A stretch of DNA of 32,000 nt from assembly GCA_014360755.1 (NCBI GenBank), contig JACIWX010000001.1, positions 640,441 through 672,440 on the forward strand, in the 5' to 3' direction. Source of the stretch: Chloroflexota bacterium. Lineage in GTDB: Bacteria; Chloroflexota; Anaerolineae; UBA2200. Below, in pieces: positions 8,103 to 23,269 of the stretch; the first letter of the stretch is position 1, and each line of letters starts with the position of its first letter. The notes under the pieces are model-generated. The model did no database searches. It had not been told where the DNA came from and saw nothing but the letters and a program-made list of their open reading frames with translations. Both the position numbers and the translations under genes were made by a program.

Positions 8103-10295
8103 TCAGTTAGGACGCTCCAGCACCCAGCTATATTCGTAACCAGCTACCAGTAGCTCCTTGCCCGCAAAAGCAATTGGCCCTGGTATGTTGGCACTGGCAT
8201 AGACCGTATAGACCCCAGGCTCCAACTCCTTCGACCAAACCGTACCTGGCGCCAGAATAGTTGACTCGTCACCAAAAGAAAGCGTCATCGGACCCTGTAG
8301 GTTGTTCGTAATGTGCGCAATAGACTTGTCTTCAGCAGTTGCCGACCTTAACTGAGGCCGTGGCAGCGCCAGCTCCGTACCAGGTTTGGGTAATGGTGTG
8401 GGCTGAAGCTGCACTTCGACCTGGTGCAAGGAAAGTTGGTAAATCTTGCGATCGCCCTGGAAGAGCAACCACAAGTAGCCCTGCTCGTCAAAAGTCAAAG
8501 TTGGGTAGTATGGGAAGGTTCCGACACTCAGCTTGCCTGAACGCAGCAAGCTGCCGTCAAAACCAAATCGGTACCAGTCACCAAAGATGCCTATCACCCA
8601 CAGTCCGTCAGGAGCCCAGGCCAGAGCTTCGAGTCCACCCCAGATGGGAGCATGGAAAGTCTGGAGTAGTTCGCCATCTGCGCTAAACTTTAACAGAAAC
8701 TCGTCTCTATACTCCCACATCGTGCCGTCAGCCCCGCTCCATGTTTGATCTCCCTTCCAAGGAAGGCGCTGAGTAAATGAGTCCAGCACTGTACCCATAG
8801 CGTTCAAATGCACAATCAATGGATTATGTGGAGGGTCGCTCAATACCAGGCGCAATGCTGCACCATCCCAGGCCATACTCAAGACGCTAGTGGTGAAGGT
8901 GATTGGAAAAGAAGCCAGTGGCATGCCGAAGCGGTCCAATTGGTATAACACACGCTGCTTTCCGTCAATCACCCACAAGGTATCTCCAGCCACCGCCAAC
9001 GCGACAGGAGAAGGGCCAGGGGAGAAGAACTCGCCAACAAGGGCATCGGGAACAAAAATGAGCTGGCCAGTACCTGTCACAGCAGGTGAAGCACTGGGGG
9101 CAAGCAGCGTTTGTCGTGGTGTAGCGGTATTAATGGGAAGCGGCGAGCGAGATGGGGTAATTGTCCTTGAAATAGGTTCAGGTGGATGGGTTAGCGTGGC
9201 TTTTCCAGCGGGCACCATAGCAATACCGGTCAAAGTCGGGCCGAAAGGTGTGCTGCTAAGCGAGAGCGTCGTAGGAGATGGGGTCAGCGGTAGCCCGGGA
9301 AAAATCGCGGAGGATAGTATTCGCACCATCAGCAGCACCAGGGCGACCAGAGCCACTGCTGCCAGGCCTCCCCATAACCATTTCGGTAAAGGGGAGCGTC
9401 GTCCCACCCCACGTAGTTTAATGGCCTTGGCCAGCAAACTGGCAGCATCTTTATAAGCTTCGTCCTGATCAACGACCAATTCTCTCAATAACCTTATGGC
9501 TCGCTCGTAATCCTTCCTGACCAGGGCTGCTTTTCCCTCGGCATATGTGCGCGCCATCCGTTGCAACTTCTCAACCTGTTGCAGCTCCGCTTGGGCCGCT
9601 TCTCGATCTTCCGGCCCTAGTGCCAGGTACTCGCGCAAGGCCGACAGAGCCTCGTTCCACTCCTCCGCCTGGGTCAGGCTCCCGGCGCGGTCCCGCAACG
9701 CCTTCAGGCGGCTCTCCCGCTGTCGCTGCTGGATCTCCAGTAGTTCCCTTTGGATTGCGGCGTCACCGGGCACCAGGGCAAGGTATTCATTTAGCGCTGC
9801 CGTGGCCCTATCCCAGTCCCCTGCCTCTGTTGCCTGATTGGCCCGTCTCAGGATGGCTTCCAGCCGTTGCTCCTGCTCTCGGGCCGGGGCTTCGGCGACC
9901 AGCAAGGCCTGCACCCTGTCACCAAGCTTCTGCAGATGCTTCTCCAGCGGCGGCGTTAGCGCGTCCAGCCAATGGATCGCCTTGATGTAATACCCCATCT
10001 CCTTGGATGGTGGTACATCTTCGATGCGGAACGGAATGATGGGAATGCCCTTGTCCACTGCTTCTCCCACTTCGCGCAGCACTTGTGATGACTCGTTTGC
10101 GCCGTCGGAGAAAACCAGGACAAAGACACGGCTTTGGCCAATGGCATCAATCAAAACCCCCACCCAACTCTCACCAGGCAGCACATCCCGTGGGGCGATC
10201 CAGCAGCGCATCTTGCGGCTTTCCAGAGTAGCACACACCGCGTCCGCGACCACTTTATCCCGAGCCGAGTAGCTGATGAACACGTCATGAGCCAT
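8103..10295 (-). CDS. TIR domain protein: N-terminal TIR, three TPR-like helical repeats, one TM helix, P/S/T linker, C-terminal beta-propeller-like region and terminal beta-rich domain
   Basis: ATG at 10295 with AGGAGG 8 nt upstream (the ORF opens at GTG 10304). TIR blocks are DVFISYSARDK, CWIAPRDV, VFVLVFSDGANESSQVLREVGEA and IPIIPF. The hydrophobic helix is WLWGGLAAVALVALVLLMVRIL (about 9315-9380). The C-terminal half repeats motifs such as GDTLWVIDG...LYQLD, MAWDGAAL, WAPDGLWVIG and QGYLWLLFQG...IYQL. Confidence 0.8.
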   Translation of the reverse strand: MAHDVFISYSARDKVVADAVCATLESRKMRCWIAPRDVLPGESWVGVLIDAIGQSRVFVLVFSDGANESSQVLREVGEAVDKGIPIIPFRIEDVPPSKEMGYYIKAIHWLDALTPPLEKHLQKLGDRVQALLVAEAPAREQEQRLEAILRRANQATEAGDWDRATAALNEYLALVPGDAAIQRELLEIQQRQRESRLKALRDRAGSLTQAEEWNEALSALREYLALGPEDREAAQAELQQVEKLQRMARTYAEGKAALVRKDYERAIRLLRELVVDQDEAYKDAASLLAKAIKLRGVGRRSPLPKWLWGGLAAVALVALVLLMVRILSSAIFPGLPLTPSPTTLSLSSTPFGPTLTGIAMVPAGKATLTHPPEPISRTITPSRSPLPINTATPRQTLLAPSASPAVTGTGQLIFVPDALVGEFFSPGPSPVALAVAGDTLWVIDGKQRVLYQLDRFGMPLASFPITFTTSVLSMAWDGAALRLVLSDPPHNPLIVHLNAMGTVLDSFTQRLPWKGDQTWSGADGTMWEYRDEFLLKFSADGELLQTFHAPIWGGLEALAWAPDGLWVIGIFGDWYRFGFDGSLLRSGKLSVGTFPYYPTLTFDEQGYLWLLFQGDRKIYQLSLHQVEVQLQPTPLPKPGTELALPRPQLRSATAEDKSIAHITNNLQGPMTLSFGDESTILAPGTVWSKELEPGVYTVYASANIPGPIAFAGKELLVAGYEYSWVLERPN

Positions 10296-10337
10296 GTCCT
10301 TCACCTCCTATGTTTGCCACATACTTTGAGGCCAACT

Positions 10338-10415: not shown

Positions 10416-13091
10416 TCACCATTTAGCCACCTCTCCCTGCAGCTTGACAATGGCATAGCCCGCCCTGGCCACAATTTCCGGGATGGCGCGTACCAATGCG
10501 CGATCTTTCTCTTTCTCGTCTTCGGGAAGAGGTTCGTCACCAATTGCTACCGCCACAGCGGGCTCGAGCGCTGCTCGTTCTGCGGCAGATAATCGTCGCC
10601 AAGGCAGTATCGCTGGGTTGATTTTCTCCGCATCATTGCGCTGGGGACCATAGCGCCAACCGGCAGCAATCTTGGCACGCAACCAGCGCTCGTGCTCCAT
10701 TTCCGCCAATTTCTCCAGATCTGCTTCGGAAAAGGCAAATGTTGCCATGCTGCCGCGCACTGGAATCATGACACAACCAATGAAAGCTAACTTGCGCATA
10801 ATGTCCAACACATTGTCGCGGTTCTGCTGCTTGAGATGCTGAGGCAACTGCTCATACGGCATGGATGCTGCTTCAGGTGCGCCTGGCTTGCCCTCTTGGC
10901 TCGCACTATAGACCTCGTGCACGGCCGCCGCCAGCCTTTCCAGCAATTCACCGCTCAATTCAGGTTGTTGCACGAGTGCCAGAAATTCCAACCCGTTCAC
11001 GTGCAGGTTTAACTGTGCCTCAGAGGGCAGGCAGGAGCGCTCAAAGCGGCTTTTGCCCGCCAACATGCTCATGGCAATGATAGATTCCATAGAGCGTACC
11101 CCGTGTTTGTAGCTGCTGATGTGCAAAAAAGCGCGCAGAACACCAGGGTCTATGTTCAGTTTTCCCTTGCCATTCGGTTCTGTGAATAGATAATGGGCAT
11201 TCAGTGCGAACAGGCTGCGCAGCAGAATCGCCCGTCGGATCAGGAAGTAGGGATCGCCAGCAGGATACTTGACGTCCAATGGATTGGGCCCCATGATGTT
11301 TACATACCCTTTCAAGCGGCTCAAAAAATCTGGCCCCTTGGCATCCTTCGCACGCATCGCCACTTGGGCAAACTCCTCCATGCTGGTAGACGTGCCCCCT
11401 GCGAAGACAAAGATGGCTTGGCCAATGGGATGAGTAACCTGCCCCTCCTGAAAAGAGCCATCCTGCATGGGCGAGAGGAAATAACGCAGCCAGCCAAGCG
11501 CCTGTCCATCCAGTTGGCTGTCAAACTCGTCCCAGAATACCAGTGGCATCTTGCCCGACAAGCCCAAATCCCTTACCTGATGCAGGGCGCCAATCAACTC
11601 ATCTGGTGTGCGGAACTGGGATAGGTTAAAGGTGCGCACCTCAATGGCCTGTGGGTCATCGGGCCGGATAGACCTAGCTACCTGTTCCACGCCAAACGAT
11701 TTGCCCGAGCCCGGTGGCCCAAAGACAGCGATGGATATAGGGCGTTTTTGTGGCCGGCTGCAATACTCAGCAAGAACCGCGCGGATGCTGCGATAGCTCT
11801 CAATCTCACGCCGATCCAGGGTCAAGAGTTTGCCAAATTGCCCTAGTGGCACCCCCTGCAAAGCAGCTTCAACACCCTCTTCAACTACTTTGCGTGCCAC
11901 TTCGTCCAGGTTCTCTGGATAGCGCTCCTGTAAAATAGTCCAGAATGGTGTCACTAACCCAGTGCCACTCCCACGCTTTTCCACCAGGAACGAGATAGGA
12001 TTCGGTACCCTGACAGATGCCAGGAGTGGCTCTTCCTCTCCATCCATCAGCCTGGCCGCCACTGCATCTATCGGGAACGCCAGCCGGCAGGCATCTCGAG
12101 CGGAGCCTGGTCCGAGGTAGCCGCCCTGGTGTAAGAGGCGCATTGCAGCGACCCCGTTCTGGATGCCTTGTGTTAGGTCAGGTTGGGCCGGGTTACGCAG
12201 GATCTGCCAGGCAATAGCCGCTGTGAGGCAGGTAGTATAACCAACAACCCGTCCTGGGTATTGGAGATTCCAACCACCCTCAGTGAACCTGGGGTCAAAG
12301 AACAACGTGCATTCGAGTTCGCCTTGCTGACACGAGAGCAGCAACGCTCCTGCCGTATCGAAGGAAATAACAACATGCGCACAATCCGATAGGTCGCTTA
12401 CATGCGGGTTGTTCGTCAGTTCCCAGAACAGGTCCTGGGCTGTGCGTTCCCAAGACAATTCACGGCTAATCTGCACCTGCGTCAGGCGCAGGTCATCAAT
12501 CGTCATCACCATGATCAAACGCTGGGCACAGGTCTTGTGCAAGTGTTCCCACAGTGGCCCGCGAGCCACGGGGCGAGCCATTTTGACCAGAACCCACCCT
12601 TGACAGTTGCCTTGCGCCACGGCACGCGGCCACAGCTCAGGCCAATGGCGAAAGCCCAGATCCGCATCGTCCAGCACAACTAACATGGGATCCGACGGGT
12701 CATTGCGCACTTTCTGCCATGAAGCAGGTTCTGCCATTGGGCTGGGGTCTAATCCCAGATGGTCTTTTACACGCCAAGCCATCTCTTGGCTTTTCCCGCC
12801 CTTGAACTGATCCCATAGCGCATAGGAATGATGGAAGCGCTCGTCGCCAGGATGCATAGGTTCCCGAGGAGCATCCATTTGGCGTACAATATAGCCCGAT
12901 TGTTTTGCAACCACATGAATGAGATCAGCGAGCATCGCTGCCCCACCGCGATGCCAGCAAGCCTTGGTACGGTCGCCAGCCCACCATGCACGCAAGGGTG
13001 TATCGTTCCTAGCACTGCGAAAGCGTGCCAAATTCCAATCCATGGTCACGTCACCTGTGACGACGACCTCTTTACCTATTGTATTGTTCAT
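10416..13091 (-). CDS. Multidomain ATPase: N-terminal ribokinase/PfkB-like domain, central classical AAA+ ATPase, C-terminal tandem RyR-type repeats
   Basis: ATG at 13091 preceded by AGGAGGA (the ORF opens at 13163). The N-terminal PfkB-like pattern is VVVTGDVTMDWNL, GGAAMLADLI, LVVLDDADLG and VVISFDTAGALLL, but no GAGD anion-hole motif is present (VGYTTCLTAAIA). Walker A is VFGPPGSGKS (about 11700-11723) and Walker B is LVFWDEFD. The RyR repeat is EHERWLRAKIAAGWRYGP...ILPW...EDEKEKDRALVRAIPEIVARAGYAIVKL. Confidence 0.75.
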   Translation of the reverse strand: MNNTIGKEVVVTGDVTMDWNLARFRSARNDTPLRAWWAGDRTKACWHRGGAAMLADLIHVVAKQSGYIVRQMDAPREPMHPGDERFHHSYALWDQFKGGKSQEMAWRVKDHLGLDPSPMAEPASWQKVRNDPSDPMLVVLDDADLGFRHWPELWPRAVAQGNCQGWVLVKMARPVARGPLWEHLHKTCAQRLIMVMTIDDLRLTQVQISRELSWERTAQDLFWELTNNPHVSDLSDCAHVVISFDTAGALLLSCQQGELECTLFFDPRFTEGGWNLQYPGRVVGYTTCLTAAIAWQILRNPAQPDLTQGIQNGVAAMRLLHQGGYLGPGSARDACRLAFPIDAVAARLMDGEEEPLLASVRVPNPISFLVEKRGSGTGLVTPFWTILQERYPENLDEVARKVVEEGVEAALQGVPLGQFGKLLTLDRREIESYRSIRAVLAEYCSRPQKRPISIAVFGPPGSGKSFGVEQVARSIRPDDPQAIEVRTFNLSQFRTPDELIGALHQVRDLGLSGKMPLVFWDEFDSQLDGQALGWLRYFLSPMQDGSFQEGQVTHPIGQAIFVFAGGTSTSMEEFAQVAMRAKDAKGPDFLSRLKGYVNIMGPNPLDVKYPAGDPYFLIRRAILLRSLFALNAHYLFTEPNGKGKLNIDPGVLRAFLHISSYKHGVRSMESIIAMSMLAGKSRFERSCLPSEAQLNLHVNGLEFLALVQQPELSGELLERLAAAVHEVYSASQEGKPGAPEAASMPYEQLPQHLKQQNRDNVLDIMRKLAFIGCVMIPVRGSMATFAFSEADLEKLAEMEHERWLRAKIAAGWRYGPQRNDAEKINPAILPWRRLSAAERAALEPAVAVAIGDEPLPEDEKEKDRALVRAIPEIVARAGYAIVKLQGEVAKW

Positions 13092-13176
13092 TATTCCTCC
13101 TAATGATCTTGCGAAGCTCCTGCAAGCCATCGAGTGAGCAAGGGGTATGGTTCCCCGACACAAGCTATCCCCTTGA

Positions 13177-14373
13177 TCACTCGTATATCCCCGCCTCGAG
13201 CACGCTTACCCCTTCCATATCCAACAAAGTGTCCCGTCGGCTGATCTCTCCCCGGACGAGAACCCACAAAGTGTGCCGTTTGTCCGCAATGTCCACACCG
13301 ACAGGCAAGGCAGCCTTAATCTGCTGGATAAGAGGAGAACGAGTGGCTGCCAGGCACGCTGCACCAGTGCCCAGGCTATGTGGCCCAGCGAGAACCATCA
13401 CAAGGCGGCCGGGATAATCGGGATGTGGCCCACGGACAATAATCCCGTGATCCATAACGTGGATAAGAGCCCCTTCCGTGCCTAGATACTCAGTCCTGCC
13501 TTCCACCAAGTCCACCTGACCATTCTTCGTGCGGTAGAGAGCAGTCAGGTAGTCTCCTTCCTCCTTTTCGCCGGGAAATGCCCCCAGAGTCCAATTGGGT
13601 TCGCGACCCTTTTGCAAACGTTGCAACATTTCTCGGACGGGTGGATTGCTCTTTGGAGAGCCAATCAGGTAGAGGTTTAACGGTCGGCTCAGCAGGTCTG
13701 GTGGGCTATATTGTCCTGAGACCAATTCCACGCCTCTGCCCTCGCCCATGATACATCCAAAAGCGGAGATGAGGCCAAGCACTCCCAGATTGTCGCCAAA
13801 CGTCCGTTGGTCATAGGCTTGAGCGCGAATGCGGCTGTCCTTGCCAGGGTATCTGGGGCTGGCGACGATGTAGGCTGGTGTGGGTATGTCCGCTTCCAGC
13901 ATGTCCCGCAGCAAAGCAATCTGCGCATTCACACGCGAACGAAGGTGATCTGCCAGGCGTTTGTCAAAGACCTCCATTGCTTCCCGGCTGCCACTATAGG
14001 AAATTACTTCCCTTCCCTTCAGATCGGTAGGCACGTCAACGCCTTCCTCGACGAGCAGCAACAACGGTTTCTGTACACCTACTGCATAGCCCACCTCGTA
14101 GAATACATTGGCGCTCGGGGTGCTGATTTCAGCAATCACCAGTTCTGCCCTCTCGATCAGCAAATGGATCTTGGCCAGTAAATCGTGGCCAGCACCATGC
14201 ACATCGTCAGCACGAATAGCCGCAAGCCCCACCGCCTGACGCACCACTTCGCGGATGTGCACGAAAAAGTCCCATCGGGATTTATATGGCATCACCACGA
14301 AGACATAGGGCTTGCCCTGGGTAAGCTCTTCAACGATATGCCCAAGGGCATACGATGAACTCTCTTTCCTCAT
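13177..14373 (-). CDS. Nucleoside 2-deoxyribosyltransferase/TIR-like N-terminal domain fused to an uncharacterised ~235-aa C-terminal domain
   Basis: ATG at 14373 with AAGGAGGG 8 nt upstream. The N-terminal pattern is YVFVVMPYKSRWDFF...IRADDV...LIERAELVIAEISTPSANVFYEVGYAVGVQKPLLLLV. It resembles the NDT-type D/E-x-G-T-x-x-E-x-G-Y-A block with a conserved Glu. I recognised nothing in the C-terminal domain. Confidence 0.6.
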   Translation of the reverse strand: MRKESSSYALGHIVEELTQGKPYVFVVMPYKSRWDFFVHIREVVRQAVGLAAIRADDVHGAGHDLLAKIHLLIERAELVIAEISTPSANVFYEVGYAVGVQKPLLLLVEEGVDVPTDLKGREVISYSGSREAMEVFDKRLADHLRSRVNAQIALLRDMLEADIPTPAYIVASPRYPGKDSRIRAQAYDQRTFGDNLGVLGLISAFGCIMGEGRGVELVSGQYSPPDLLSRPLNLYLIGSPKSNPPVREMLQRLQKGREPNWTLGAFPGEKEEGDYLTALYRTKNGQVDLVEGRTEYLGTEGALIHVMDHGIIVRGPHPDYPGRLVMVLAGPHSLGTGAACLAATRSPLIQQIKAALPVGVDIADKRHTLWVLVRGEISRRDTLLDMEGVSVLEAGIYE

Positions 14374-14416
14374 GACCACTTCCCTCCTTATAGGGAGTGC
14401 CTCTAATATAGTTCCA

Positions 14417-17317
14417 CTACGAAGCCGAAGCGGATGGATTGCAAAGGTCTGTCAGATTCGGGCATGTGGACTGGCACGGTTCGTCCTCTAGGAACTGCCG
14501 CCATTCCTTCGGGGTGAGGTTGCGATTGGCGATGCGACAGGCGCGAGCCCGCCACGAATCTAGACTGGCATCCCAGAGGATGATAGTGCCATCTAGGCTG
14601 CCAGATAACAAAGTACCGCCGTCCGGACTAAAAACCACGCTGTCCACCGCAGACCTGTGGCCAATGAGCGGCTTGCCTATGGCATGACCGCTTTTCACAT
14701 CCCATAGGATAATGGAGTTGTCCTCTGTGGGCGGAGACACTCGGCCGCTGCCAGATGCCAATATTCGCCCATCAGGACTGAAAGCAATGCTCTGCACTCC
14801 TACACTATGGCCTTTGAGCGGGGAAAAGAGGGGTTGACCGGTCGTGACATCCCACAGGATAACGGTGGAATCCTCTCCGCCTGATGCTAGGATATGGCTA
14901 TCTGGGCTGAAAGCGACGCTGTTCACCCAGAAAGCATGCCCACGCCATGGTTGGCCACATGGCATCCGTGTAGCGACATCCCAAAGGATGACCGTTCTAT
15001 CCATGCTACAGGAAGCCAACATCTTCCCATCTGGGCTGAATGCCACACTCTGCACCTCTGCACTGTGACCGGTTAATGGCTCGCCCAGTGGTCGATGCGC
15101 GGAGACATCCCAGAGGATAATGGTTTTATCCGCACTAGAGGAAGCCAATATCTTTCCATCCGGGCTGAAAGCAACACCCATAACCGATCGCGTATGCCCT
15201 GTCAAGGGTTCGCCAATGGCTTGCTGGGTCATCACATCCCACAGCATGACGGTATTGTCCTCGCTGCCAGACGCTAACGTCTGACCATCCGGACTGAAAG
15301 CAAGGCTGGTTATGAAAGACCTGTGTCCCTTCAACGGCTGGCCAATGGGCTGCCCTGTCTTGGCGTCCCATAGGATGATGGCGTTGTCCCTTCTGCCTGA
15401 GGCGAACACTTTGCCATGTGGGCTAAAAGCCAGGCTCCCAGTATAACCTGTCTCGTTGATGACAAGCTGGGCCAGCGGTTGGGACACCGTTTGCTGAGTA
15501 TTCCACAACATGATCAGAGTCCCACTGCCAGCGACCAAGGTTGCTCCATCTGAACTGAAAGCTAAGGACGGCACTCCTTCGGCGTGCCCGGTCGCTAGTG
15601 TGCCCAACGACTGATGTGTCTGCGCATCCCACAGAGTTACCGTGCCATGTCCACTACCTGATGCCAACACTCTTCCGCTGGGATTGAAAGCCAGGCTGAA
15701 TACCCCAGCGTCGCGACCAGTGAGAGGAATCTCCCCTATTGCTCCCCCGGCTGAGACGTCCCATATCATAATGGCATCATCGGCATCCCCGCCCGACAAG
15801 AGTGTTTTCCCATCTGGGCTGAAGGCAAGGCTAGTCACATAATGGCTGTGCCCTTCCAGGCGTGGCATCAGCGGTTTGAGGGTGGCAACATTCCAAAGAA
15901 CAATGGTGCGATAGGCACCTGCTGCCAATATGCGCCCATCGGGGCTGAAAGCGACCTCCTGTACCATTCCCCAGTGAGGTCCGAGTGGCTGACCAAGTGG
16001 TTCTCCTGTTGCCACGTCCCATAGAATCACAGTCTGGTCATCGCTGCCGGACGCCAACATCTTCCCATCCGGACTGAACGCGACACAGAGCACATGGTGC
16101 TGATGCCCTTTGAGAGGAGCAAGCACAGGCAAGCCAGTGGCTACATTCCACAGGATGATGGAGCCATCGGAACTGCCGGACGCCAGCATCTGTCCATCCG
16201 GGCTAAAAGCCACGCTGTTCACCGTGCCAGTATGTCCGGTGAGATGCCGTCCACCGGATTCAGGGTGCGTCGTATCCCAGAGCATAACGCTGCCATCTGC
16301 ACTGCCTGAGGCCAGCGTGTTCCCCTTTGGACTGAAAGCCACGCTGAACACGGAAGAGGTGTGGCCATGGAGAAAAGCAGTGAGATTGGGGCTGTGTTCT
16401 AACGCATCGAGCAGGCTAGCTCTGGCTTCTACAGTATCTGCGATGCGGCTGGCCTCAACAGCCAATAGCAGCGCCAAGTCAAGCTGATCGGAAAGGTGAG
16501 TCTGCGCCTGCGCTGCCAATTGGCGGGACAAAGCGATACGGCGTTGTTGCTCTGCGTTATCTCTCTGCGCGATTGCTTCTGCTTGAGCCGTAGCGCGCAC
16601 CCTAGCTTCCTCAACCGCAATGGCTTTCGCCTCTAGTGCTTCATTGCGTTGACCCCAGGCAACCAATGCCAAAACAGCAGTCACTACCAAGCCCAACGTA
16701 ACCGCTGCAAGCGTGGCTCTTTGCCGGTTTATTGCTGCCTTGCGACTGGCAAGGATGTACTCCACCTGCAGTGGAGTGGGTGTAGGTTCCTTTGTCGCAC
16801 TTTTGCCCAACCATTCCTCTGCCTCCTGGAGATCCCTGCCGCGTAGCGCAAAACTGTTGTCCCGTCCCTTGCTATCCCACTCTGTAGCACGCACGAGGAA
16901 CCGAGTATGTGCACGCACCCAGTCGAGATCCGTTTGAATGGCTTGCACCAACTTATCGAAAGACTGCTGGAAATCATCCTGCTCGCGGAAGAATATCCAA
17001 TGGAGCGAGGCAATCTCAGGAGGCAGGTCTCTAGGATCAAGATCGTGCAGCAGCACCGGTACCAATCGCTTGTGGTTTCCGAGGCCGTGCTCGATTTCCT
17101 TGCGACAGACCTCTGATTGGACCGATGTCTGGCTGACAATAAACACCAGTGTATCGGCCCCTTCGATGGCGCGATATACCTCAGACTGCCAGTCTGCACT
17201 AGGGGGAATATCCTCCCAGTCAACCCATATCTCTAGATCCCTGGCACGCAGGGCATCGTAGAGCACACGCGCAAAAGCAATATCCTTCCGTGAGTAAGAG
17301 ATAAAGACGTCTGACAT
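14417..17317 (-). CDS. TIR-WD40 protein: N-terminal TIR, one hydrophobic helix, coiled coil, 14 WD40 repeats
   Basis: ATG at 17317 with AGGAGA 6 nt upstream. TIR blocks are DVFISYSRKD, IWVDWEDI, LVFIVSQTSVQSEVCRKEIEH and LVPVLL. The hydrophobic helix is LAAVTLGLVVTAVLALVAW. There are 14 units of about 42 aa with the pattern L-x-GH-x-x-x-V-x-S-VAFSPDG-x-x-LASGS-x-D-x-T-(V/I)-ILWD. The C-terminal tail (ACRIANRNLTPKEWRQFL...TCP) is typical of bacterial WD40 arrays. Confidence 0.9.
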   Translation of the reverse strand: MSDVFISYSRKDIAFARVLYDALRARDLEIWVDWEDIPPSADWQSEVYRAIEGADTLVFIVSQTSVQSEVCRKEIEHGLGNHKRLVPVLLHDLDPRDLPPEIASLHWIFFREQDDFQQSFDKLVQAIQTDLDWVRAHTRFLVRATEWDSKGRDNSFALRGRDLQEAEEWLGKSATKEPTPTPLQVEYILASRKAAINRQRATLAAVTLGLVVTAVLALVAWGQRNEALEAKAIAVEEARVRATAQAEAIAQRDNAEQQRRIALSRQLAAQAQTHLSDQLDLALLLAVEASRIADTVEARASLLDALEHSPNLTAFLHGHTSSVFSVAFSPKGNTLASGSADGSVMLWDTTHPESGGRHLTGHTGTVNSVAFSPDGQMLASGSSDGSIILWNVATGLPVLAPLKGHQHHVLCVAFSPDGKMLASGSDDQTVILWDVATGEPLGQPLGPHWGMVQEVAFSPDGRILAAGAYRTIVLWNVATLKPLMPRLEGHSHYVTSLAFSPDGKTLLSGGDADDAIMIWDVSAGGAIGEIPLTGRDAGVFSLAFNPSGRVLASGSGHGTVTLWDAQTHQSLGTLATGHAEGVPSLAFSSDGATLVAGSGTLIMLWNTQQTVSQPLAQLVINETGYTGSLAFSPHGKVFASGRRDNAIILWDAKTGQPIGQPLKGHRSFITSLAFSPDGQTLASGSEDNTVMLWDVMTQQAIGEPLTGHTRSVMGVAFSPDGKILASSSADKTIILWDVSAHRPLGEPLTGHSAEVQSVAFSPDGKMLASCSMDRTVILWDVATRMPCGQPWRGHAFWVNSVAFSPDSHILASGGEDSTVILWDVTTGQPLFSPLKGHSVGVQSIAFSPDGRILASGSGRVSPPTEDNSIILWDVKSGHAIGKPLIGHRSAVDSVVFSPDGGTLLSGSLDGTIILWDASLDSWRARACRIANRNLTPKEWRQFLEDEPCQSTCPNLTDLCNPSASAS
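14542..16381 (-). repeat. Tandem array of 14 WD40-coding units of about 126 bp (intragenic repeat)
   Basis: There is periodic protein-level repetition (VAFSPDGKMLASGS...TVILWDVATG occurs nearly verbatim several times). The many spurious plus-strand ORFs of similar sequence across this interval reflect the underlying DNA periodicity. Confidence 0.8.
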
Positions 17318-17437: not shown

Positions 17438-17752
17438 TCAGCGTCCCAACTTCTGACGCAATTGCTGGTAGTACTGCTCATCCGCTGGAGACACATACAT
17501 ACCAGCCCGCTTCATCTCCGAAAAGATGTCATACGCGCGCTGCCACCACTCAAGGGCTGTGGGGTCGCCCAAACGCTCCAGCGCATCGGCGATCCAGCAG
17601 CAAGCAACCCACAGATCGCGCTGCCAGCCGGCGTTGGATGGGTCCAACACCGCTAAGCGCTCACGGATCGCCAGACTCTCCCGATATTCTCTCAGTACAC
17701 CTGTCAAGTCTCCCTGCGCCTGCAGCACACTGGCAACCCTGTCGTGGCTCAC
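17438..17752 (-). CDS. Small TPR-like protein (104 aa); possibly an adaptor or a remnant of a longer TPR protein
   Basis: The GTG start lies 7 nt after the stop of the upstream RyR gene. The sequence VLQAQGDLTGVLREYRESLAIRERLAVLDPSNAGWQRDLWV matches the about 40-aa unit common in bacterial TPR arrays (GDLxGALxxYxxSLAIxExLAxxDPxNxxWQRDL). It is followed by a C-terminal cap. Confidence 0.55.
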   Translation of the reverse strand: MSHDRVASVLQAQGDLTGVLREYRESLAIRERLAVLDPSNAGWQRDLWVACCWIADALERLGDPTALEWWQRAYDIFSEMKRAGMYVSPADEQYYQQLRQKLGR

Positions 17753-17759
17753 GGATAGA

Positions 17760-19553
17760 TCATGCTACCATCCGGCGTTGGTAGGGCAGCCGGTACACCT
17801 GCAACCCTGCCCGTGCGAGGAAGCGCGGCAACTCGCGCACTACGTTGCGATCCTTTTCCTTCTCCGCTTCGGGCAGTTCGTCCCAGGGAACCAGGATAGG
17901 GCTGGTCTTTCGTTCCATGTCTTTGGGACCTGGGGCATAGCTCCAGCCTGCGCGTAACCGCTCTTCCACAAAGCGCTGATGTTCCATTTGTGCCATCTTC
18001 TCGACTTCCTCTGCCGTGAACTCGAACCGTTCCGCATCCCAGTCAGTCAACGGTGCTATACCATAGCCTACTGCCTTTAATTTCACCAAAATATGATCCG
18101 CTTGACACCGGTTCGATTCTTTGATCTCCTCCGGCAATTCCTCCCAACATACCAAGGAAGGATTCGTCGCTGGTGTTTCACCTAACCCTTGCTGGTGCCG
18201 CACATAGCTCTCATGAATAGCACGTGCCAACACCTCATGGGTGCCGCCGAGAATCAGTTCAGGACTACAAGTACGATCTAGCAATCCAAAGGCATAGGGG
18301 TTGTCAAAACCATCTCCTTCCGCGCTACGCAGGAGCAGCGCCAACCCCGTCTCGTGAGCCATGCGCACCACAATAGGAATTCTTTGCCCTCTTAAACGCT
18401 GCAGTAACGTCAAGCCTGTCTTTAAGCCAAGGGCATCGTTGTCCAGGCATACATATACCGCTGTTACATCGCAGTGCCCATCAGAGCCGAGCAGAAAACC
18501 CGCTTGCTCAAACTCTGGCCAGAGGATATCCATTTGCAGGACAGCCAGTTGGCAGGCTTTCTCCAATTTCGGATAACGTAGGCAGAGCGACGCTACTTTG
18601 CGCTTTGCTTCTCGATCGATGATGCTGATCCGCAGGGAACCATAAGTTTGCGTATAGTTGGTCCACCAACTCCTTGCCATATGGACTACCAGGCTCTCCC
18701 CCATGCGCCCCAAGCCAACAATGAGCACATGAGGTTGTTGCATCAATACACCGTCTTCCTCATGGAAGCACGGATGTTCTTCCAACAAGAGCCGGGCTCC
18801 ACGGTCAAAGATATTGAACAGTTCCAACCGATATGAAGGGACTGGTGACACTTCGCGCTCACGGAGCAGGTGGTATAGCCGCGCATCCACAATGTGCACA
18901 AAGCAAGTCAATGGACGCCCTTGGCGCGAAGCAACCAGCTCTCGGACGTGCACAGCAACCTCGGCATTGGTGCTGTCATCCCCACAGACGGAGAACACGT
19001 ATTTCGCCCTCGGAACCCCTGCCCGACACAGAACCCCTCGATCCTTAGCATTCCCCAGGGTCACGATGATACCTTCTTCCTGACACAATGTGATGAAATC
19101 GTTGTTCTCATCCTGCTCGATAACGACCACGCGCTCTCCCTGCTGGAGGAACCCCCGCGCTAAGAGCAATCCCATGCGACCTAACCCACAGATCACCACA
19201 TGATCGCGGATGAAACGCAAGCGCAACAATTGCACTTGCTCATAAAAGATCGTTACAAAAGTCTGTATAACCGTATAAGCAGCTACAGCCGGTGCCAACA
19301 ATCGTGCCGCTTGCAACTCCCAGCCTATAGGCGGAGGAACTGCTCCAGATTGCAGGGGAAAAAGCTGCAAAGTGAGGTAGAAAAGATCCCAGAACGAGCG
19401 ATTCTCGTTTAGCGCAGCAAAATGCTTGGCAAATCCAACATACCCCAGGTACAACGTGGTTAGCCACAGCCCAATAATCAAAACCCCTCGGTACTGAGAC
19501 CAATTACGCCAAACAGTTTGGCGCCAGGCTCTATTGGCTACTCTTTTCATCAT
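17760..19553 (-). CDS. 2TM pore-like membrane domain + two Rossmann (TrkA-N/RCK-like) domains + C-terminal tandem RyR-type repeats
   Basis: The start at 19553 is 9 nt after the upstream stop. The membrane layout is TM1 GVLIIGLWLTTLYLGYVGFA, a pore-helix-like segment SFWDLFYLTLQLFPLQSG and TM2 LLAPAVAAYTVIQTFVTIF. The TrkA-N domain reads VVICGLGRMGLLLARGF..VVVIEQDE..GNAKD..GDDSTN. A second GxGxxG is VLIVGLGRMG. The RyR repeats are AIHESY...WEELPEEIKESNR and MEHQRFVEERLRAGWSYAP...LVPWDELPEAEKEKDRNVVRELPRFLARAGLQVYRL. Confidence 0.75.
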   Translation of the reverse strand: MMKRVANRAWRQTVWRNWSQYRGVLIIGLWLTTLYLGYVGFAKHFAALNENRSFWDLFYLTLQLFPLQSGAVPPPIGWELQAARLLAPAVAAYTVIQTFVTIFYEQVQLLRLRFIRDHVVICGLGRMGLLLARGFLQQGERVVVIEQDENNDFITLCQEEGIIVTLGNAKDRGVLCRAGVPRAKYVFSVCGDDSTNAEVAVHVRELVASRQGRPLTCFVHIVDARLYHLLREREVSPVPSYRLELFNIFDRGARLLLEEHPCFHEEDGVLMQQPHVLIVGLGRMGESLVVHMARSWWTNYTQTYGSLRISIIDREAKRKVASLCLRYPKLEKACQLAVLQMDILWPEFEQAGFLLGSDGHCDVTAVYVCLDNDALGLKTGLTLLQRLRGQRIPIVVRMAHETGLALLLRSAEGDGFDNPYAFGLLDRTCSPELILGGTHEVLARAIHESYVRHQQGLGETPATNPSLVCWEELPEEIKESNRCQADHILVKLKAVGYGIAPLTDWDAERFEFTAEEVEKMAQMEHQRFVEERLRAGWSYAPGPKDMERKTSPILVPWDELPEAEKEKDRNVVRELPRFLARAGLQVYRLPYQRRMVA

Positions 19554-19562
19554 CTCAATTCT

Positions 19563-21068
19563 TCAGTGGCAAATTTGTGGGTCTACCCGATATAGCTTGT
19601 TCGTTTCGTTGTGGATCACCCACAGAAAACGCCCATCCCATGCCAGTCCTTTCCATGCCCACCAAACTGGCGCCGAAGGGAGATCAATCCTGCAAACACC
19701 TTGCATGGCTTGATTCACCTTCGTCAAATGATTGTCAACTAGCACCCAAAGATGTGTTCCGTCCCATACCAACCCAGATGCTCGGCTAGAAGGAAATATC
19801 CCAAAGTCCATAGCATAAGAATCCAACGTCTTTATCTCATTGCCCATCGGCCCAAGCTTGTATATCGCGCCCTCTGAAGAAGTCACCCACAAGTATTGTC
19901 CATCCCACGCAATATTTGTCGGACTGCCAAGGAAATCTTTCGGCATTTCGAAAAGAGTGGTTGTGGCGCCGGTTTGATCCTTAAGGCTAATGCCTTGATC
20001 ATCCAAAGCCCAAAACTGCTTTCGTGATTCATCCCAAGCCAACTCTCCCGGCGGCCAAAGGCATTCTTGCTCAGAAATGCGAAAACGGCTTTCCTCTTCT
20101 ACCAGTTCTAGCCTTACCTGCCCAGAAACAAATCGCACACACAAAGCCGAACCATCATAGATAACGCGAACGGGGTCATTGAGAGGCAACCTGTACGCCT
20201 TTATTGCCTCTGGTGTAGCCATGCCCACTGGCGTAGCCGTATAAATGGGGGCTGCAATAGGCATAACTGTCAATGTAGGAATCCGTGTGAAAGCACGAGT
20301 AGGACCTGCAGTTACTGTAGCAACAGGGGTAAAGGTAGCCATTTTCATCGCCGTAGGACTGTGCTTGGGAACCGATGTCGGTGAAGACACACTTGTAGCC
20401 GCCGTAGGGGAATACGTAGCTAGATTGGGGCTGGTCATCGCAGTAGATAATTGGAGCAATTTCCATGCTAGAAACACGATGACAGTGCCTTGAACCGTAA
20501 ATGCTACCGCTGCAATCCAGAACCATTTATGCTGCCACGGCGGCTTGGCTTCTTTATGTGGCACAACTGTTATCTCAGGTTGCCTTGCTCTAGGCAATGC
20601 GCTTAATTTCACCCCACCTGGCTCGGGCTCTCGGCTCTCACCCTTGCCCTGCGCCTCAATACCAAGGGCGTGCAAACCGCTGATGATGCGGGGAATAATT
20701 GGGGCAATTCCTTCAGGGGGAATGGTGATGGAAGAGGCGCTGCCCACCGCTTGCCGCCATAATGGCTGACGAATCTGAAACTGGCTATGGGTTACCTGGC
20801 TGAGCACAGGAATAAAAGGTTTGCCAGCTTCGTGAGCACGTACTACCTCACTGCTCACCTGGTTGGAGCCAAGCGAATGCACCGAGATAATGAGCACAAC
20901 AGCATGGGATTGTTCGATCGCTTGTCCTGTTTGCACGAGATAGGAGAGACCAGGGACACTATCCCGCTCATAGTACCAAACAGTATACCCAACTGCCTCC
21001 AGGCCTTGCGCAATCTCCAATGCAACTTGAGCATCTTCTTCCACATGGCTGATAAAAATATCGGCCAT
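19563..21068 (-). CDS. TIR domain protein: N-terminal TIR, one TM helix, S/T/P-rich linker, C-terminal beta-propeller-like domain
   Basis: ATG at 21068 with GAAGGAG 6 nt upstream (the ORF opens at 21104). TIR blocks are DIFISHVEEDAQVA, VWYYERD, AVVLIISVHSLGSNQVSSEVVRA and PFIPVL. The TM helix is WFWIAAVAFTVQGTVIVFLAWKLL. C-terminal repeats are IAWDGQYLWVTSSEGAIYKL, LVWDGTHLWVLVDNHLTKV and LAWDGRFLWVIHNETNKLYRV. Confidence 0.8.
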   Translation of the reverse strand: MADIFISHVEEDAQVALEIAQGLEAVGYTVWYYERDSVPGLSYLVQTGQAIEQSHAVVLIISVHSLGSNQVSSEVVRAHEAGKPFIPVLSQVTHSQFQIRQPLWRQAVGSASSITIPPEGIAPIIPRIISGLHALGIEAQGKGESREPEPGGVKLSALPRARQPEITVVPHKEAKPPWQHKWFWIAAVAFTVQGTVIVFLAWKLLQLSTAMTSPNLATYSPTAATSVSSPTSVPKHSPTAMKMATFTPVATVTAGPTRAFTRIPTLTVMPIAAPIYTATPVGMATPEAIKAYRLPLNDPVRVIYDGSALCVRFVSGQVRLELVEEESRFRISEQECLWPPGELAWDESRKQFWALDDQGISLKDQTGATTTLFEMPKDFLGSPTNIAWDGQYLWVTSSEGAIYKLGPMGNEIKTLDSYAMDFGIFPSSRASGLVWDGTHLWVLVDNHLTKVNQAMQGVCRIDLPSAPVWWAWKGLAWDGRFLWVIHNETNKLYRVDPQICH

Positions 21069-21241
21069 TGGCAGCTCCTTCTGTACCATTTTGGGTACTG
21101 ACAACCACAGCTAAAGGGGACGCAAAAGTATCACTGTTTTGAACTAGATACATCTATACAGGTATGTCAACTTGTTGTAGTATACAACCAAAAACCGGAT
21201 TGAGCAAGAGTTCTATACAAGTATCTAATTCAATCTATTTG

Positions 21242-21607: not shown

Positions 21608-23017
21608 CTAGTGAGTCACAGGCACGCGCTCTTTGTACAATCGCTCTCTAATAGCCATCACATCACGGCGCAACTGGTCATCCTCTTCTATACCAACCTG
21701 AATTTTCTCACAGCCGTAGAGCACAGTCGTATGATCGCGTCCTCCAAGAATTTCACCGATTTGGGGCAATGAGCAACCAAGTTCTTCCTTCAACAGGTAC
21801 ATTGCCACCTGGCGGGGAAAGGCAATAGCATGGCTGCGCTGTCGGCTCTTCAACAGGTGTAGTTCCAAGCCGTAGTATTCACACACTGTCTCCAATACTT
21901 GTTCTGCTGTGATTGAATCGGATCTTGTCAGGATTCCCTTCAGAGCTGCGGTTGCCATTTCTATTGTAAGAGGAGACTTGGTCAATACCGCGTTCGCCAC
22001 CACCCGATTAAGGGCTCCTTCCAGCTCGCGCACGTTGCTGGGAAACTTTCCGGCAATATAGTCAATTACTTCTGGTGGAATTTGGACGGACTGTAGTTCG
22101 GCTTTTGCACGCAGGATAGCAATACGGGTTTCCAAGTCAGGGGGTTGGATGTCCGCAATTAGGCCTTGCTCGAATCGGGATTGGAGGCGTTTTTCCAGTG
22201 GCTTGATGGCGCGTGGCGGGCGATCGCTGGACATCACGATCTGCTTGCCTGCTTGGTACAGAGTGTTGAAGGTATGGAAAAATTCTTCTTGTGTGCTTTC
22301 TTTGCCGGCGATGAATTGGATGTCATCAATAAGCAGGATATCTACATGGTTGCGGTATTTGGCGCGAAATTCTTCAGTGCTTTGTGTGCGAATGGCATTG
22401 ATGAGTTCATTCGTAAAGGTTTCAGAGGACACATACAACACAGCAGGGGTCAAAGCCAGAGCTGCGTTGCCAATTGCCTGCAGTAGATGGGTCTTGCCTA
22501 ATCCTACTCCCCCATAGATAAAGAGGGGATTGTATTTCTTCCCCGGATTTTCAGCAACGGCTCTAGCAGCAGCGTGTGCCAAACTATTGGAGTTGCCGAC
22601 GACGAATGTTTCAAAGGTAAGCCTTGGGTTTAAGCCCGTATTCACAAGCAATTTTTGGGCATGGCTGGTCTGTGGTTTTGTCCAGGCAACGCGGGTTGGG
22701 AAACTAGGGGTTTCCTCATCCTGAGTCTCTAGCTCTAACAGGATATTTTCCTGTGCGGCCCTTTTGCTGCGCCGCGGATGGACAACAAACTTGATCTCTA
22801 CGGTCTGGCCGACAATGCCTATTAGGGTACGCTTAATGGTCGTGAGTAGGCGGTTTTCTAACCAATCTTTGGCATAGGCATTGTGTACTCCGATGACAAA
22901 TGTGCCGTCTTCATAGCTCAGCACATGGGTGTTTTTGACCCAGGTATCAAAAGTGGACTTGGTTAACTGCAATTGTAACTCGCCGAGTACTGCTTGCCAC
23001 GCTTGCTCAGCATTCAT
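21608..23017 (-). CDS. dnaA: Chromosomal replication initiator protein DnaA
   Basis: Unmistakable DnaA sequence: MNAEQAWQAVLGELQLQL..., Walker A GGVGLGKTHLL, Walker B ILLIDDIQF, SSDRPP, NVRELEGAL, and the C-terminal DNA-binding helix-turn-helix FPRQVAMYLLKEE...IGEILGGRDHTTVLYGCEKI. The ATG at 23017 has GGGAGA upstream. The ORF extension to 23122 is not DnaA-like. Confidence 0.97.
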   Translation of the reverse strand: MNAEQAWQAVLGELQLQLTKSTFDTWVKNTHVLSYEDGTFVIGVHNAYAKDWLENRLLTTIKRTLIGIVGQTVEIKFVVHPRRSKRAAQENILLELETQDEETPSFPTRVAWTKPQTSHAQKLLVNTGLNPRLTFETFVVGNSNSLAHAAARAVAENPGKKYNPLFIYGGVGLGKTHLLQAIGNAALALTPAVLYVSSETFTNELINAIRTQSTEEFRAKYRNHVDILLIDDIQFIAGKESTQEEFFHTFNTLYQAGKQIVMSSDRPPRAIKPLEKRLQSRFEQGLIADIQPPDLETRIAILRAKAELQSVQIPPEVIDYIAGKFPSNVRELEGALNRVVANAVLTKSPLTIEMATAALKGILTRSDSITAEQVLETVCEYYGLELHLLKSRQRSHAIAFPRQVAMYLLKEELGCSLPQIGEILGGRDHTTVLYGCEKIQVGIEEDDQLRRDVMAIRERLYKERVPVTH

Positions 23018-23269
23018 GTCAAGTCTCCCTGGAAATATCTGCATTTTAATATATTGACAACATGACCAGAGATTCAGAGTTCGCAAAGAATGCCCGTCAA
23101 GTGGTGACAGGGAAAAGAGCAAAAGAGGAACATATTTGCTCTACAAAGACGTCATTATTTGTGAAGGTCACAAAACCAGAGGAGATTTTCCCCCGCTGCA
23201 CTGGGGATTATTGTAGCCGATAGGCTTCTTTTTGGCAATCACGGGCAAGTCGCTACGGGTGCTGTATCT

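Follow-up and report, generated by a model that had tools for sequence, protein, structure and literature searches.

A predicted two-helix pore fused to two RCK-type domains and a tandem RyR pair in a TIR-rich operon of a Chloroflexota bacterium, a candidate effector of Thoeris-like signalling

What would a protein with the outline of a K+ channel do in an operon rich in TIR genes? The question is raised by a stretch of 32,000 nt from a Chloroflexota bacterium (assembly GCA_014360755.1, contig JACIWX010000001.1, positions 640,441 to 672,440, forward strand), which in its full length is called the window here. Within it the open reading frame (ORF) 17760..19553 on the minus strand encodes a protein, in the following the candidate channel, which joins a membrane part with two transmembrane helices (2TM) to two Rossmann domains of the RCK type and to a tandem pair of RyR repeats. 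We computed its domain architecture and its fold, the conservation of its pocket and of its Rossmann motifs, and its gene neighbourhood. The reading that we favour, and to which we give about an even chance, is that the protein is probably a tetrameric, non-K+-selective cation channel which serves as effector of a Thoeris-like TIR system, is gated through its RyR pair and possibly receives an additional input through its RCK domains.

The ORF starts with ATG and codes for 597 aa; an identical product, 596 aa when counted from the second methionine, is annotated on eight public contigs. A Kyte-Doolittle scan found exactly two hydrophobic segments, residues 24-42 (VLIIGLWLTTLYLGYVGFA) and 85-103 (LLAPAVAAYTVIQTFVTIF), and an AlphaFold2 (AF2) model places a short helix and a loop between them, so that the two hydrophobic helices flanking a short segment, noticed in a preliminary description of the sequence, were found again. 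An RCK (TrkA_N) domain with a GxGxxG motif and an acidic residue follows directly after the inner helix. Pfam recognises TrkA_N at residues 119-209 (E 3.5e-19, 69.7 bits, cut-off 23.8), and the same domain matches the PDB sequences of TM1088A and of the Kch RCK domain. Towards the C-terminus the Pfam family RyR is matched in two stretches (E 3.3e-17, 62.9 bits, cut-off 27.4), which means that the pair is present, and a phmmer search of the PDB returned the repeat regions of RyR1-3 (E to 4e-14) and a RyR domain of Bacteroides thetaiotaomicron. The second Rossmann domain (275-435) has no significant Pfam match; in the AF2 model it has a beta-alpha-beta fold, and it lies within the Foldseek alignments (400-528 columns) to the tandem-RCK protein GsuK and to TrkA. 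TrkA_C lobes were not detected at E 0.01. PADLOC and NCBIfam hold no curated family for the protein and gave sub-threshold matches to TrkA, Kch and Kef RCK models only. Both ends are predicted to be cytoplasmic, as in 2TM K+ channels, from the abundance of Arg and Lys at the N-terminus and from the basic stretch that follows the second helix. The gene is laid out as follows, with the basis of each assignment in brackets.

17760..19553, minus strand: whole gene, predicted 2TM pore, RCK1, RCK2 and tandem RyR (R12) repeats (ORF, Pfam, AF2, Foldseek)
19413..19484, minus strand: first transmembrane helix (TM1), residues about 24-47, with an Arg/Lys-rich N-terminus before it (hydrophobic 24-42, helix 2-47 in the model)
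19323..19397, minus strand: P-loop-like segment, residues 53-77, with helix 54-62 and loop 63-77 containing F-P-L-Q68-S69-G70-A-V-P-P-P (model, conservation)
19212..19322, minus strand: second transmembrane or inner helix (TM2) and linker to RCK1, residues 78-114 (helix 78-114 in the model)
18774..19199, minus strand: N-lobe of RCK1, a TrkA_N Rossmann domain, residues 119-260, with G123-L-G125-R-M-G128 and E146 (Pfam, PDB matches)
18249..18731, minus strand: RCK2-like Rossmann domain, residues 275-435, with G280-L-G282-R-M-G285 and D313 (model, Foldseek alignments)
18024..18248, minus strand: RyR repeat 1, residues 436-510, with H447, Y450, N464 and N481 (phmmer to RyR1-3 Repeat12, BLASTP to the phage protein RyR Tad gp68)
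17784..18023, minus strand: RyR repeat 2, residues 511-590, with H525, F528, K544, S551, K567 and D568 (Pfam RyR 516-586, gp68 alignment)

The AF2 model, calculated with 115 homologues in the alignment, reached a pLDDT of 89.9 and a pTM of 0.82. It consists of a helix (2-47), a short helix (54-62), a loop (63-77), a further helix (78-114), the two Rossmann domains (119-260 and 275-435) and an all-helical RyR pair (438-590). When the whole chain was compared to the PDB with Foldseek, chains of GsuK came out on top (E 5e-12, 514-528 aligned columns of about 547), followed by the TrkA ring, Repeat12 of human RyR3 with ATP, ADP or dantrolene, Slo1, MthK and CASTOR. The architecture that had been read from the sequence, a pore followed by two Rossmann domains and a tandem RyR repeat, is thus borne out by hidden Markov models (HMMs), by the model and by the fold search. 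An hhalign comparison to MthK aligned only the linker and RCK1 (E 1.1e-05) and showed that the TM2-RCK linker and RCK1 of the candidate channel are in register with the C-linker and RCK of MthK. The N-terminal 101 residues were also modelled in isolation (pLDDT 86), and the top 50 PDB fold matches of this fragment are nearly all P-loop pores (MthK, KcsA, Slo2.2, KirBac, NaK, K2P, SK4, iGluR). More than 1,100 full-length homologues with 52-80% identity, found in a word-indexed search, keep every element of the candidate channel, and the pattern is therefore not a product of chance.

K+ channels are defined by the filter sequence TVGYG. The candidate channel has F-P-L-Q-S-G-A-V-P-P-P at the equivalent position and no TVGYG, and a GYG motif occurs in none of the 115 family members, so that the missing canonical filter, which had been remarked on for the single protein, is a property of the whole family. 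In its place the members share the motif Y-L-T-L-Q-L-F-[V/T/P]-L-[E/Q/N/D]-S-G-[A/S]-V-x-[G/P]-P, with E in 66, Q in 25, N in 9 and D in 8 of them at the variable acidic or amide position. No variation is seen at Y59, Q63 and L64, and conservation exceeds 90% at S69 and G70; G37 and G40 in TM1 and R84 and P88 in TM2 do not vary either. The pore helix and the loop are the best-conserved part of the membrane domain, which argues that this region is functional and not a mere anchor. A fourfold ring of Glu or Gln at position 68 would suit a cation pore without K+ selectivity, and a filter which is non-canonical yet strongly conserved is of interest in itself for the question of ion selectivity. 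The segment resembles TLESW of bacterial Na+ channels and TIGETPPP of cyclic nucleotide-gated (CNG) channels, a likeness which we take as a lead and not as evidence.

Two kinds of putative nucleotide sites are present in the cytoplasmic part. Both Rossmann domains retain GxGxxG and the acidic residue after beta2 (E146 and D313, respectively). In RCK1 the glycines are kept in 115 (G123), 108 (G125) and 113 (G128) of the 115 members and position 146 is always E or D; in RCK2 G280, G285 and D313 are invariant and G282 is found in 114 members. For the RyR pair a comparison is offered by phage proteins with RyR domains, whose action on 2' and 3' cyclic ADP-ribose (2'cADPR and 3'cADPR) is either binding with nM affinity or cleavage (PMC13232231; 10.64898/2026.06.04.730250). 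One of them is RyDEP, the RyR-domain protein gp78 of mycobacteriophage DyoEdafos, which contacts its ligand through H75, W78, H100 and D117, residues that the authors call conserved across PF02026; most of its homologues that were tested bind 2'/3'cADPR without cleavage, two of them, studied in detail, with nM affinity (PMC13232231). The other, RyR Tad (gp68 of Pectobacterium phage CB1), binds 1''-3' glycocyclic ADP-ribose (gcADPR) with a KD of 43 nM via H129/W132, K147/H154 and K170/D171 (10.64898/2026.06.04.730250). DyoEdafos was not among the tblastn matches in the phage collection; the reference for our comparison of the pocket was RyR Tad gp68 (NC_048653), to which the RyR region of the candidate channel aligns by BLASTP with E 3e-10. 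The counterparts in repeat 2 and their counts in the 115 members are:

gp68 H129: H525; H in 109
gp68 W132: F528; W in 70, F in 44
gp68 K147: K544; K or R in 109
gp68 H154: S551; S in 58, N in 19, H in 18, T in 12
gp68 K170: K567; K in 56, L in 23, Y in 10, I in 7
gp68 D171: D568; D in 86, N in 24

Five of the six pocket residues are hence kept or conservatively replaced in repeat 2. Repeat 1 has H447 in all members and Y450 in 113, and in addition N464 and N481. Among viral proteins the best fold matches of the candidate channel are likewise phage RyR proteins. Judged by its sequence the RyR pair is a credible pocket for signals derived from ADP-ribose (ADPR), and because the pocket residues are largely conserved it is a better candidate for the sensor of a nucleotide made by TIR proteins than the RCK domains. 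The preliminary description had proposed gating by such a nucleotide with the RCK domains as sensor and the RyR repeats as an appendage; ligand gating is plausible and gains stronger support from the conservation of the RyR pocket, whereas the roles given to the two modules have to be revised.

The candidate channel belongs to a minus-strand array of genes extending from 21104 to 8103, with gaps of 9, 7, 120, 37, 13 and 111 nt between successive genes. The junction with the upstream TIR gene reads TGA AGAATTGAG ATG ATG, and the distance of 9 nt from the stop codon to the start, given earlier, was read again from the sequence. Its partners in the window are:

19563..21104, minus strand: upstream TIR_2 protein with a transmembrane helix (195-213) and a C-terminal propeller-like repeat domain (Pfam TIR_2, E 2.1e-16)
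17438..17752, minus strand: small TPR-like ORF, 104 aa (weak TPR matches in Pfam)
14417..17317, minus strand: TIR protein with a transmembrane helix (201-219) and 14 WD40 repeats, 966 aa (Pfam WD40; TIR at residues 3-130 by NCBIfam and PADLOC)
13177..14379, minus strand: 400-aa protein, weakly TIR-like or nucleoside deoxyribosyltransferase-like (weak Pfam; PADLOC TIR effector model, 1.9e-08)
10416..13163, minus strand: p915, an N-terminal domain of about 440 aa, an AAA+ ATPase domain and a tandem RyR pair, 915 aa (Pfam RyR 2.9e-15, weak AAA)
8103..10304, minus strand: TIR_2 protein with TPR repeats, a transmembrane helix (317-335) and a long C-terminal region, 733 aa (Pfam TIR_2, E 1.2e-19, TPR_14)

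The operon had been called rich in TIR domains, and three Pfam-significant TIR_2 proteins and one weak TIR-like protein are indeed encoded in the window. The motif S-x-x-[VC]-x-x-E was seen by eye in each TIR (SSEVVRAHE, SEVCRKEIE, SSQVLREVGE), at the place where it is expected. The three clear TIR proteins are built alike: the TIR domain stands at the N-terminus, a single strongly hydrophobic helix follows, and a large repeat domain comes last. This recalls Toll-like receptors, with the TIR in the cytoplasm and the sensor possibly outside it. The weak TIR-like protein of 400 aa was found in close relatives only, at five loci. In a related genome (locus L006, 11837-13405) the position of the small TPR-like ORF is occupied by a ThsB_TIR-TPR gene of 522 aa; the ORF matches the TPR portion of that gene and is probably the decayed remnant of a TIR-TPR gene.

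A second large protein with a RyR pair, p915, is encoded in the same array. Its consensus has a Walker A motif (GPPGSGKSF) and a Walker B motif (VFWDEFD). The tandem repeats were recognised with a PDB profile, and the second repeat carries in the consensus the complete pocket set of the gcADPR type. The N-terminal domain of about 440 aa had no match in Pfam or in the PDB profile search. The p915 family comprises more than 1,700 homologues, is about as well conserved across phyla as the candidate channel, and adjoins TIR-WD40 or TIR-TPR genes in three of three look-ups. At one of the loci (L094) a 256-aa TrkA_N protein (10628-11398) separates the p915 homologue from three TIR genes; this protein may be related to the candidate channel but shorter, without RCK2 and without the RyR pair.

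How far does this association reach beyond the window? The family of the candidate channel contains 2,035 clusters at 50% identity (E 1e-3), the best 150 of which are about 600 aa long or fragments. Among the genomes of 185,579 GTDB species we found 144 sites with 44-60% identity, all of those listed in metagenome-assembled genomes (MAGs), and the members belong to Chloroflexota, Acidobacteriota, Gemmatimonadota, Planctomycetota, Nitrospirota, Actinomycetota, Desulfobacterota, Ignavibacteriales and Methanoperedens. The family is thus rare, patchy and well conserved among the GTDB species representatives, and a patchy distribution across phyla is typical of mobile defence genes. For a census of the neighbourhoods the ORFs of 85 non-redundant loci were searched with iterated HMMs built from the window proteins, and the neighbouring ORFs were also clustered in an unbiased way. 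A TIR gene lies within 10 kb at 29 of the 85 loci and is directly adjacent (within 200 nt) at 12, so the link to TIR genes is not confined to the window; these numbers are to be read with the proviso that many loci are short and divergent TIRs may be missed. In six of the 12 a short TIR protein is encoded directly downstream, and the representative which we inspected ends in a transmembrane helix.

A second large RyR protein is encoded at 34 loci, in 23 cases of the p915 type, whose full-length homologues make p915 the most frequent partner gene of the candidate channel, and in 11 cases of other types. Two of these 11 were scanned with Pfam: one has the order RelA_SpoT, TPR, LSDAT_prok (SLOG), RyR, the other is a 603-aa protein with a RyR match only. 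Taken together 43 of the 85 loci have at least one of these two kinds of neighbour, TIR gene or second large RyR gene. A gene for a SLOG-like protein of about 195 aa with a weak Pfam match to YAcAr is present at 12 loci and adjoins the candidate channel at 10 of them, NUDIX genes are found at seven loci and a ClpB-like AAA+ gene at six.

Oligomeric state, conduction, selectivity, identity of the ligand and a role in defence are what we infer, and with the favoured reading events might unfold in the following way. The candidate channel would most likely be a homotetramer, its eight Rossmann domains arranged as a ring below the pore and its four RyR pairs at the periphery. Upon a trigger the membrane-anchored TIR-WD40, TIR-TPR and TIR-propeller proteins would convert NAD+ into an ADPR-derived signal (2'cADPR, 3'cADPR or cADPR); the motif noted above, as read by eye, contains the glutamate expected of NAD-cleaving TIRs. 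The RyR pair of the candidate channel would bind this signal, as would in parallel the RyR pair of p915. The gating ring would then open the pore, and cations would flow, the membrane potential would collapse and growth arrest or abortive infection would follow. The Rossmann sites of the RCK domains might contribute a second input from the level of NAD+, ADP or ATP; if they report these nucleotides, the protein would therefore be doubly sensitive to TIR activity, to the loss of NAD+ and to the appearance of the signal. Together with the other RyR fusions p915 would be a parallel effector reading one and the same signal, comparable to several CARF or SAVED effectors. A TIR gene coupled to an ion channel has a precedent in Thoeris type X, which is validated as an anti-phage system (10.64898/2025.12.03.692087). 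More tentatively, and with clearly less than even confidence, we propose that RyR/Repeat12 domains of the host are the native receptors for cADPR signals made by TIR proteins and that the family as such is a cation channel gated by cADPR isomers and not selective for K+.

Several results weigh against the favoured reading. The AF2 models cover the monomer only. The fold matches of the isolated pore are singly non-significant (E 0.26-2, TM about 0.5), and at the level of sequence the pore was not recognised: Pfam Ion_trans_2 was not found in the N-terminal fragments of 33 members even at E 10, where only scattered noise appeared, a pore profile had no match at E 10 among all PDB sequences, and hhalign gave a probability of 0.1% for the pore against the MthK sequence. 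The ligand could also be a housekeeping nucleotide, because RyR3 Repeat12 binds plain ATP or ADP according to the PDB titles, and S551 stands in the place of the phosphate-contacting His of the phage proteins, a His which is replaced in most members. The census counts come from crude ORF calling and are given without a background rate, and about half of the 85 loci have neither a TIR nor a second RyR gene, several of them with flanks of 10 kb on both sides (L009, L010, L042, L049, L089). The known ThsB proteins are soluble, in contrast to the TIR proteins of the window with their transmembrane helix and large, probably extracytoplasmic domains, and PADLOC is without a model for the candidate channel.

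Homology of the pore to K+ channels could therefore not be shown at the sequence level by the searches with Pfam, the PDB profile and hhalign. When the pore profile was run against 1.84 billion representatives only the family of the candidate channel was returned, with no bridge to canonical channels and no other architectures. The statement that the pore mirrors those of 2TM K+ channels is consequently supported for predicted fold and architecture and not at the level of sequence; what we describe as a P-loop pore is predicted from the modelled fold, the topology, the GsuK-like plan and the register of the linker.

Other explanations have to be set against these data. The protein could be a housekeeping channel for cations or K+, a relative of GsuK, Kch or MthK gated by metabolism, with RCK and RyR domains that sense ATP/ADP and NAD+/NADH and with a TIR context that is incidental or secondary. 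That ADP and NAD are ligands of GsuK, the closest match in structure, as the titles of its PDB entries state, that the structures of RyR3 Repeat12 hold ATP, ADP or AMP-PCP, that several members are labelled Kch by the Joint Genome Institute (JGI) and that the loci free of TIR and RyR neighbours, about half of the total, are in some cases placed among metabolic or cell-division genes, all this would fit. We nevertheless consider such a role unlikely: 144 sites among 185,579 species combined with 44-60% identity across phyla are unlike vertical inheritance, a TIR gene is directly adjacent at 12 of 85 loci, the recurrent SLOG-like, NUDIX, RelA_SpoT-RyR and AAA-RyR partners and a fusion of p915 with SLOG are hard to ascribe to chance, and the K+ filter is missing in all members.

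Alternatively the RyR pair might be a homotypic adaptor which docks the channel to the RyR pair of p915, so that the pore is opened by protein contact after activation of the ATPase. Effector-associated domains of NTPase-centred conflict systems provide an analogy, RyR domains are found both on the channel and on its commonest partner (23 of 85 loci), phage RyR proteins dimerise via helices alpha1 and alpha4 (PMC13232231; 10.64898/2026.06.04.730250), and with two repeats per protein a pairing between proteins is conceivable. The residues that are invariant (H447, Y450, H525, W/F528, K/R544, D/N568) are however those of the ligand pocket of the phage proteins and not contacts of a dimer surface, most loci have the channel but no p915, p915 is also found where the channel is missing, and the tandem repeat already gives an intramolecular pseudo-dimer, as in RyR1-3; we regard the adaptor as quite improbable. 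Slightly more improbable still appears to us a non-conducting membrane anchor for an RCK-RyR module that sequesters or hydrolyses cADPR-type signals and thus acts as a host buffer or off-switch for the membrane TIRs. It would agree with the pore lacking support from sequence, with the anchoring of all TIR proteins of the operon in the membrane, where such a regulator would be co-localised, and with the presence in repeat 2 of residues that correspond to the catalytic dyad H75/D117 of RyDEP, namely H525 and D568, the latter position being D in 86 and N in 24 of the 115 members. The same His and Asp are found in RyR Tad, a non-catalytic sponge, and the dyad is thus no sign of catalysis; an anchor would need neither the invariant Y59, Q63 and L64 with the conserved S69-G70 loop nor a TM2-RCK linker in the register of MthK, and the whole-chain match to GsuK takes in the membrane part.

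Returning to the reading as a RyR-gated channel, we asked how the candidate channel compares to known systems. GsuK, a K+ channel of Geobacter sulfurreducens gated by multiple ligands (4gx0, 4gx1, 4gx2, 4gx5), likewise carries a 2TM pore and a tandem of two RCK domains on a single chain. It gave the best match in fold, with about 520 columns, and binds its nucleotides (ADP, NAD) in the RCK domains. The candidate channel differs from it by an identity of only 15-18%, by the absence of an Ion_trans_2 signal and of detectable TrkA_C lobes, by the extra RyR pair, by [V/T/P]-L-[E/Q]-S-G in the place of TVGYG, which we presume for GsuK as the signature of K+ channels, and by its TIR-rich context. 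With MthK, Kch and TrkA/KtrA it shares TrkA_N with GxGxxG and the acidic residue after beta2, and with MthK the register of the linker; MthK and Kch have one RCK per chain, TrkA and KtrA are soluble, and all of them are K+-selective partners without RyR, unlike the candidate channel. In plan the protein is therefore like GsuK and MthK, but it lacks the filter of K+ channels, and its pore was not matched to their sequence family.

RyDEP and RyR Tad belong to PF02026 as does the RyR region of the candidate channel, to which gp68 aligns directly. The phage proteins are small, soluble and dimeric, and they block defence by sequestering or cleaving the signal of the host, whereas the candidate channel is host-encoded and its RyR domains form a tandem pair fused to a membrane pore and RCK domains. 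Ryanodine receptors are similar in that they are tetrameric P-loop cation channels with Repeat12-type RyR domains in their cytoplasmic part; they differ in their size of about 5,000 aa, their 6TM pore and many other domains, and we do not imply that the pores are homologous. An analogue among ADPR-gated channels is TRPM2, whose SLOG (LSDAT_prok) and NUDIX modules are also present in the bacterial neighbourhoods of the candidate channel.

Thoeris type X combines a TIR protein with the ion-channel effector ThsK and confers phage defence in B. subtilis (10.64898/2025.12.03.692087). As in the window a TIR gene adjoins a predicted ion channel; the TIR of type X is however of the soluble ThsB type (PF08937), whereas those of the window are TIR_2 proteins with a transmembrane helix and WD40 or TPR repeats in a multi-gene island. 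Next to a TIR gene of Vibrio sp. JCM 19052 (L095, 3369-3995) we found a candidate for ThsK, picked by adjacency and motif and not from the sequence of that study, which is a membrane protein of 208 aa with the sequence TLTYGGFSP and no recorded Pfam match. The motif resembles a degenerate K+ filter, and the protein would be a second, unrelated P-loop-like channel linked to TIR. It has no RCK or RyR domains and no similarity to the candidate channel (hhalign probability 0.18%), and membership of the latter in Thoeris type X was rejected. Nor is the candidate channel matched by the other described Thoeris effectors (ThsA, ThsC to ThsL), with no PADLOC hit and the dissimilarity to the ThsK candidate. 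The supplementary tables of the systematic survey of TIR systems contain neither RyR nor TrkA, its main text names neither of them as an effector domain (10.64898/2025.12.03.692087), and a RyR-domain effector of the host is not described in this survey, in the two RyR preprints or in the further literature that we searched.

The system would accordingly be one of TIR signalling through a channel effector, new in its fusion of sensor and effector. Besides the phage RyR proteins described in 2026 there are many RyR-domain proteins in bacteria, and for these the locus suggests a sensor module of the host fused to effectors. If the favoured reading is right, the family would be a new effector class, and probably define a new type, of Thoeris-like immunity, and part of a larger network, present in Chloroflexota and other phyla, that links RyR-sensor proteins to membrane-anchored TIR receptors; it would also offer a tractable bacterial model of how nucleotide binding to Repeat12 is coupled to the gating of a channel. 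If the more tentative proposal of RyR domains as native cADPR receptors holds as well, the candidate channel would be a prokaryotic counterpart of cADPR acting on a channel with RyR domains, host RyR domains would be a likely source of the sponges and glycosidases captured by phages, and a wider, undescribed set of RyR-sensor effectors (AAA+ ATPase, RelA/SpoT-SLOG, a further RyR fusion) would work together with membrane TIRs in the style of Toll-like receptors.

Some individual loci are worth recording. The RelA_SpoT-TPR-SLOG-RyR protein of about 830 aa is encoded at L012 (13883-16372, by Pfam) and at L061 (4969-7482, by sequence similarity). The 603-aa RyR protein is found at L072 (5107-6918), and its N-terminal domain is without a Pfam match. 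At L085 (6349-9735) p915 is fused to the SLOG-like domain that other loci encode in a gene of its own (about 195 aa), placed immediately upstream of the candidate channel. At L010 (1-9432) the homologue is located directly downstream of kynurenine genes (3-HAO, kynureninase, Amidohydro_2, FAD monooxygenase, aldehyde dehydrogenase); the kynurenine pathway is tied to de novo synthesis of NAD, and the placement is maybe a coincidence. In the window, finally, dnaA (21608-23122, minus strand) is located directly upstream of the TIR/RyR island, as it is in the related genomes L004 and L006, and the island therefore lies near the predicted replication origin; it is syntenic in the lineage, and its content of TIR genes differs between the genomes.

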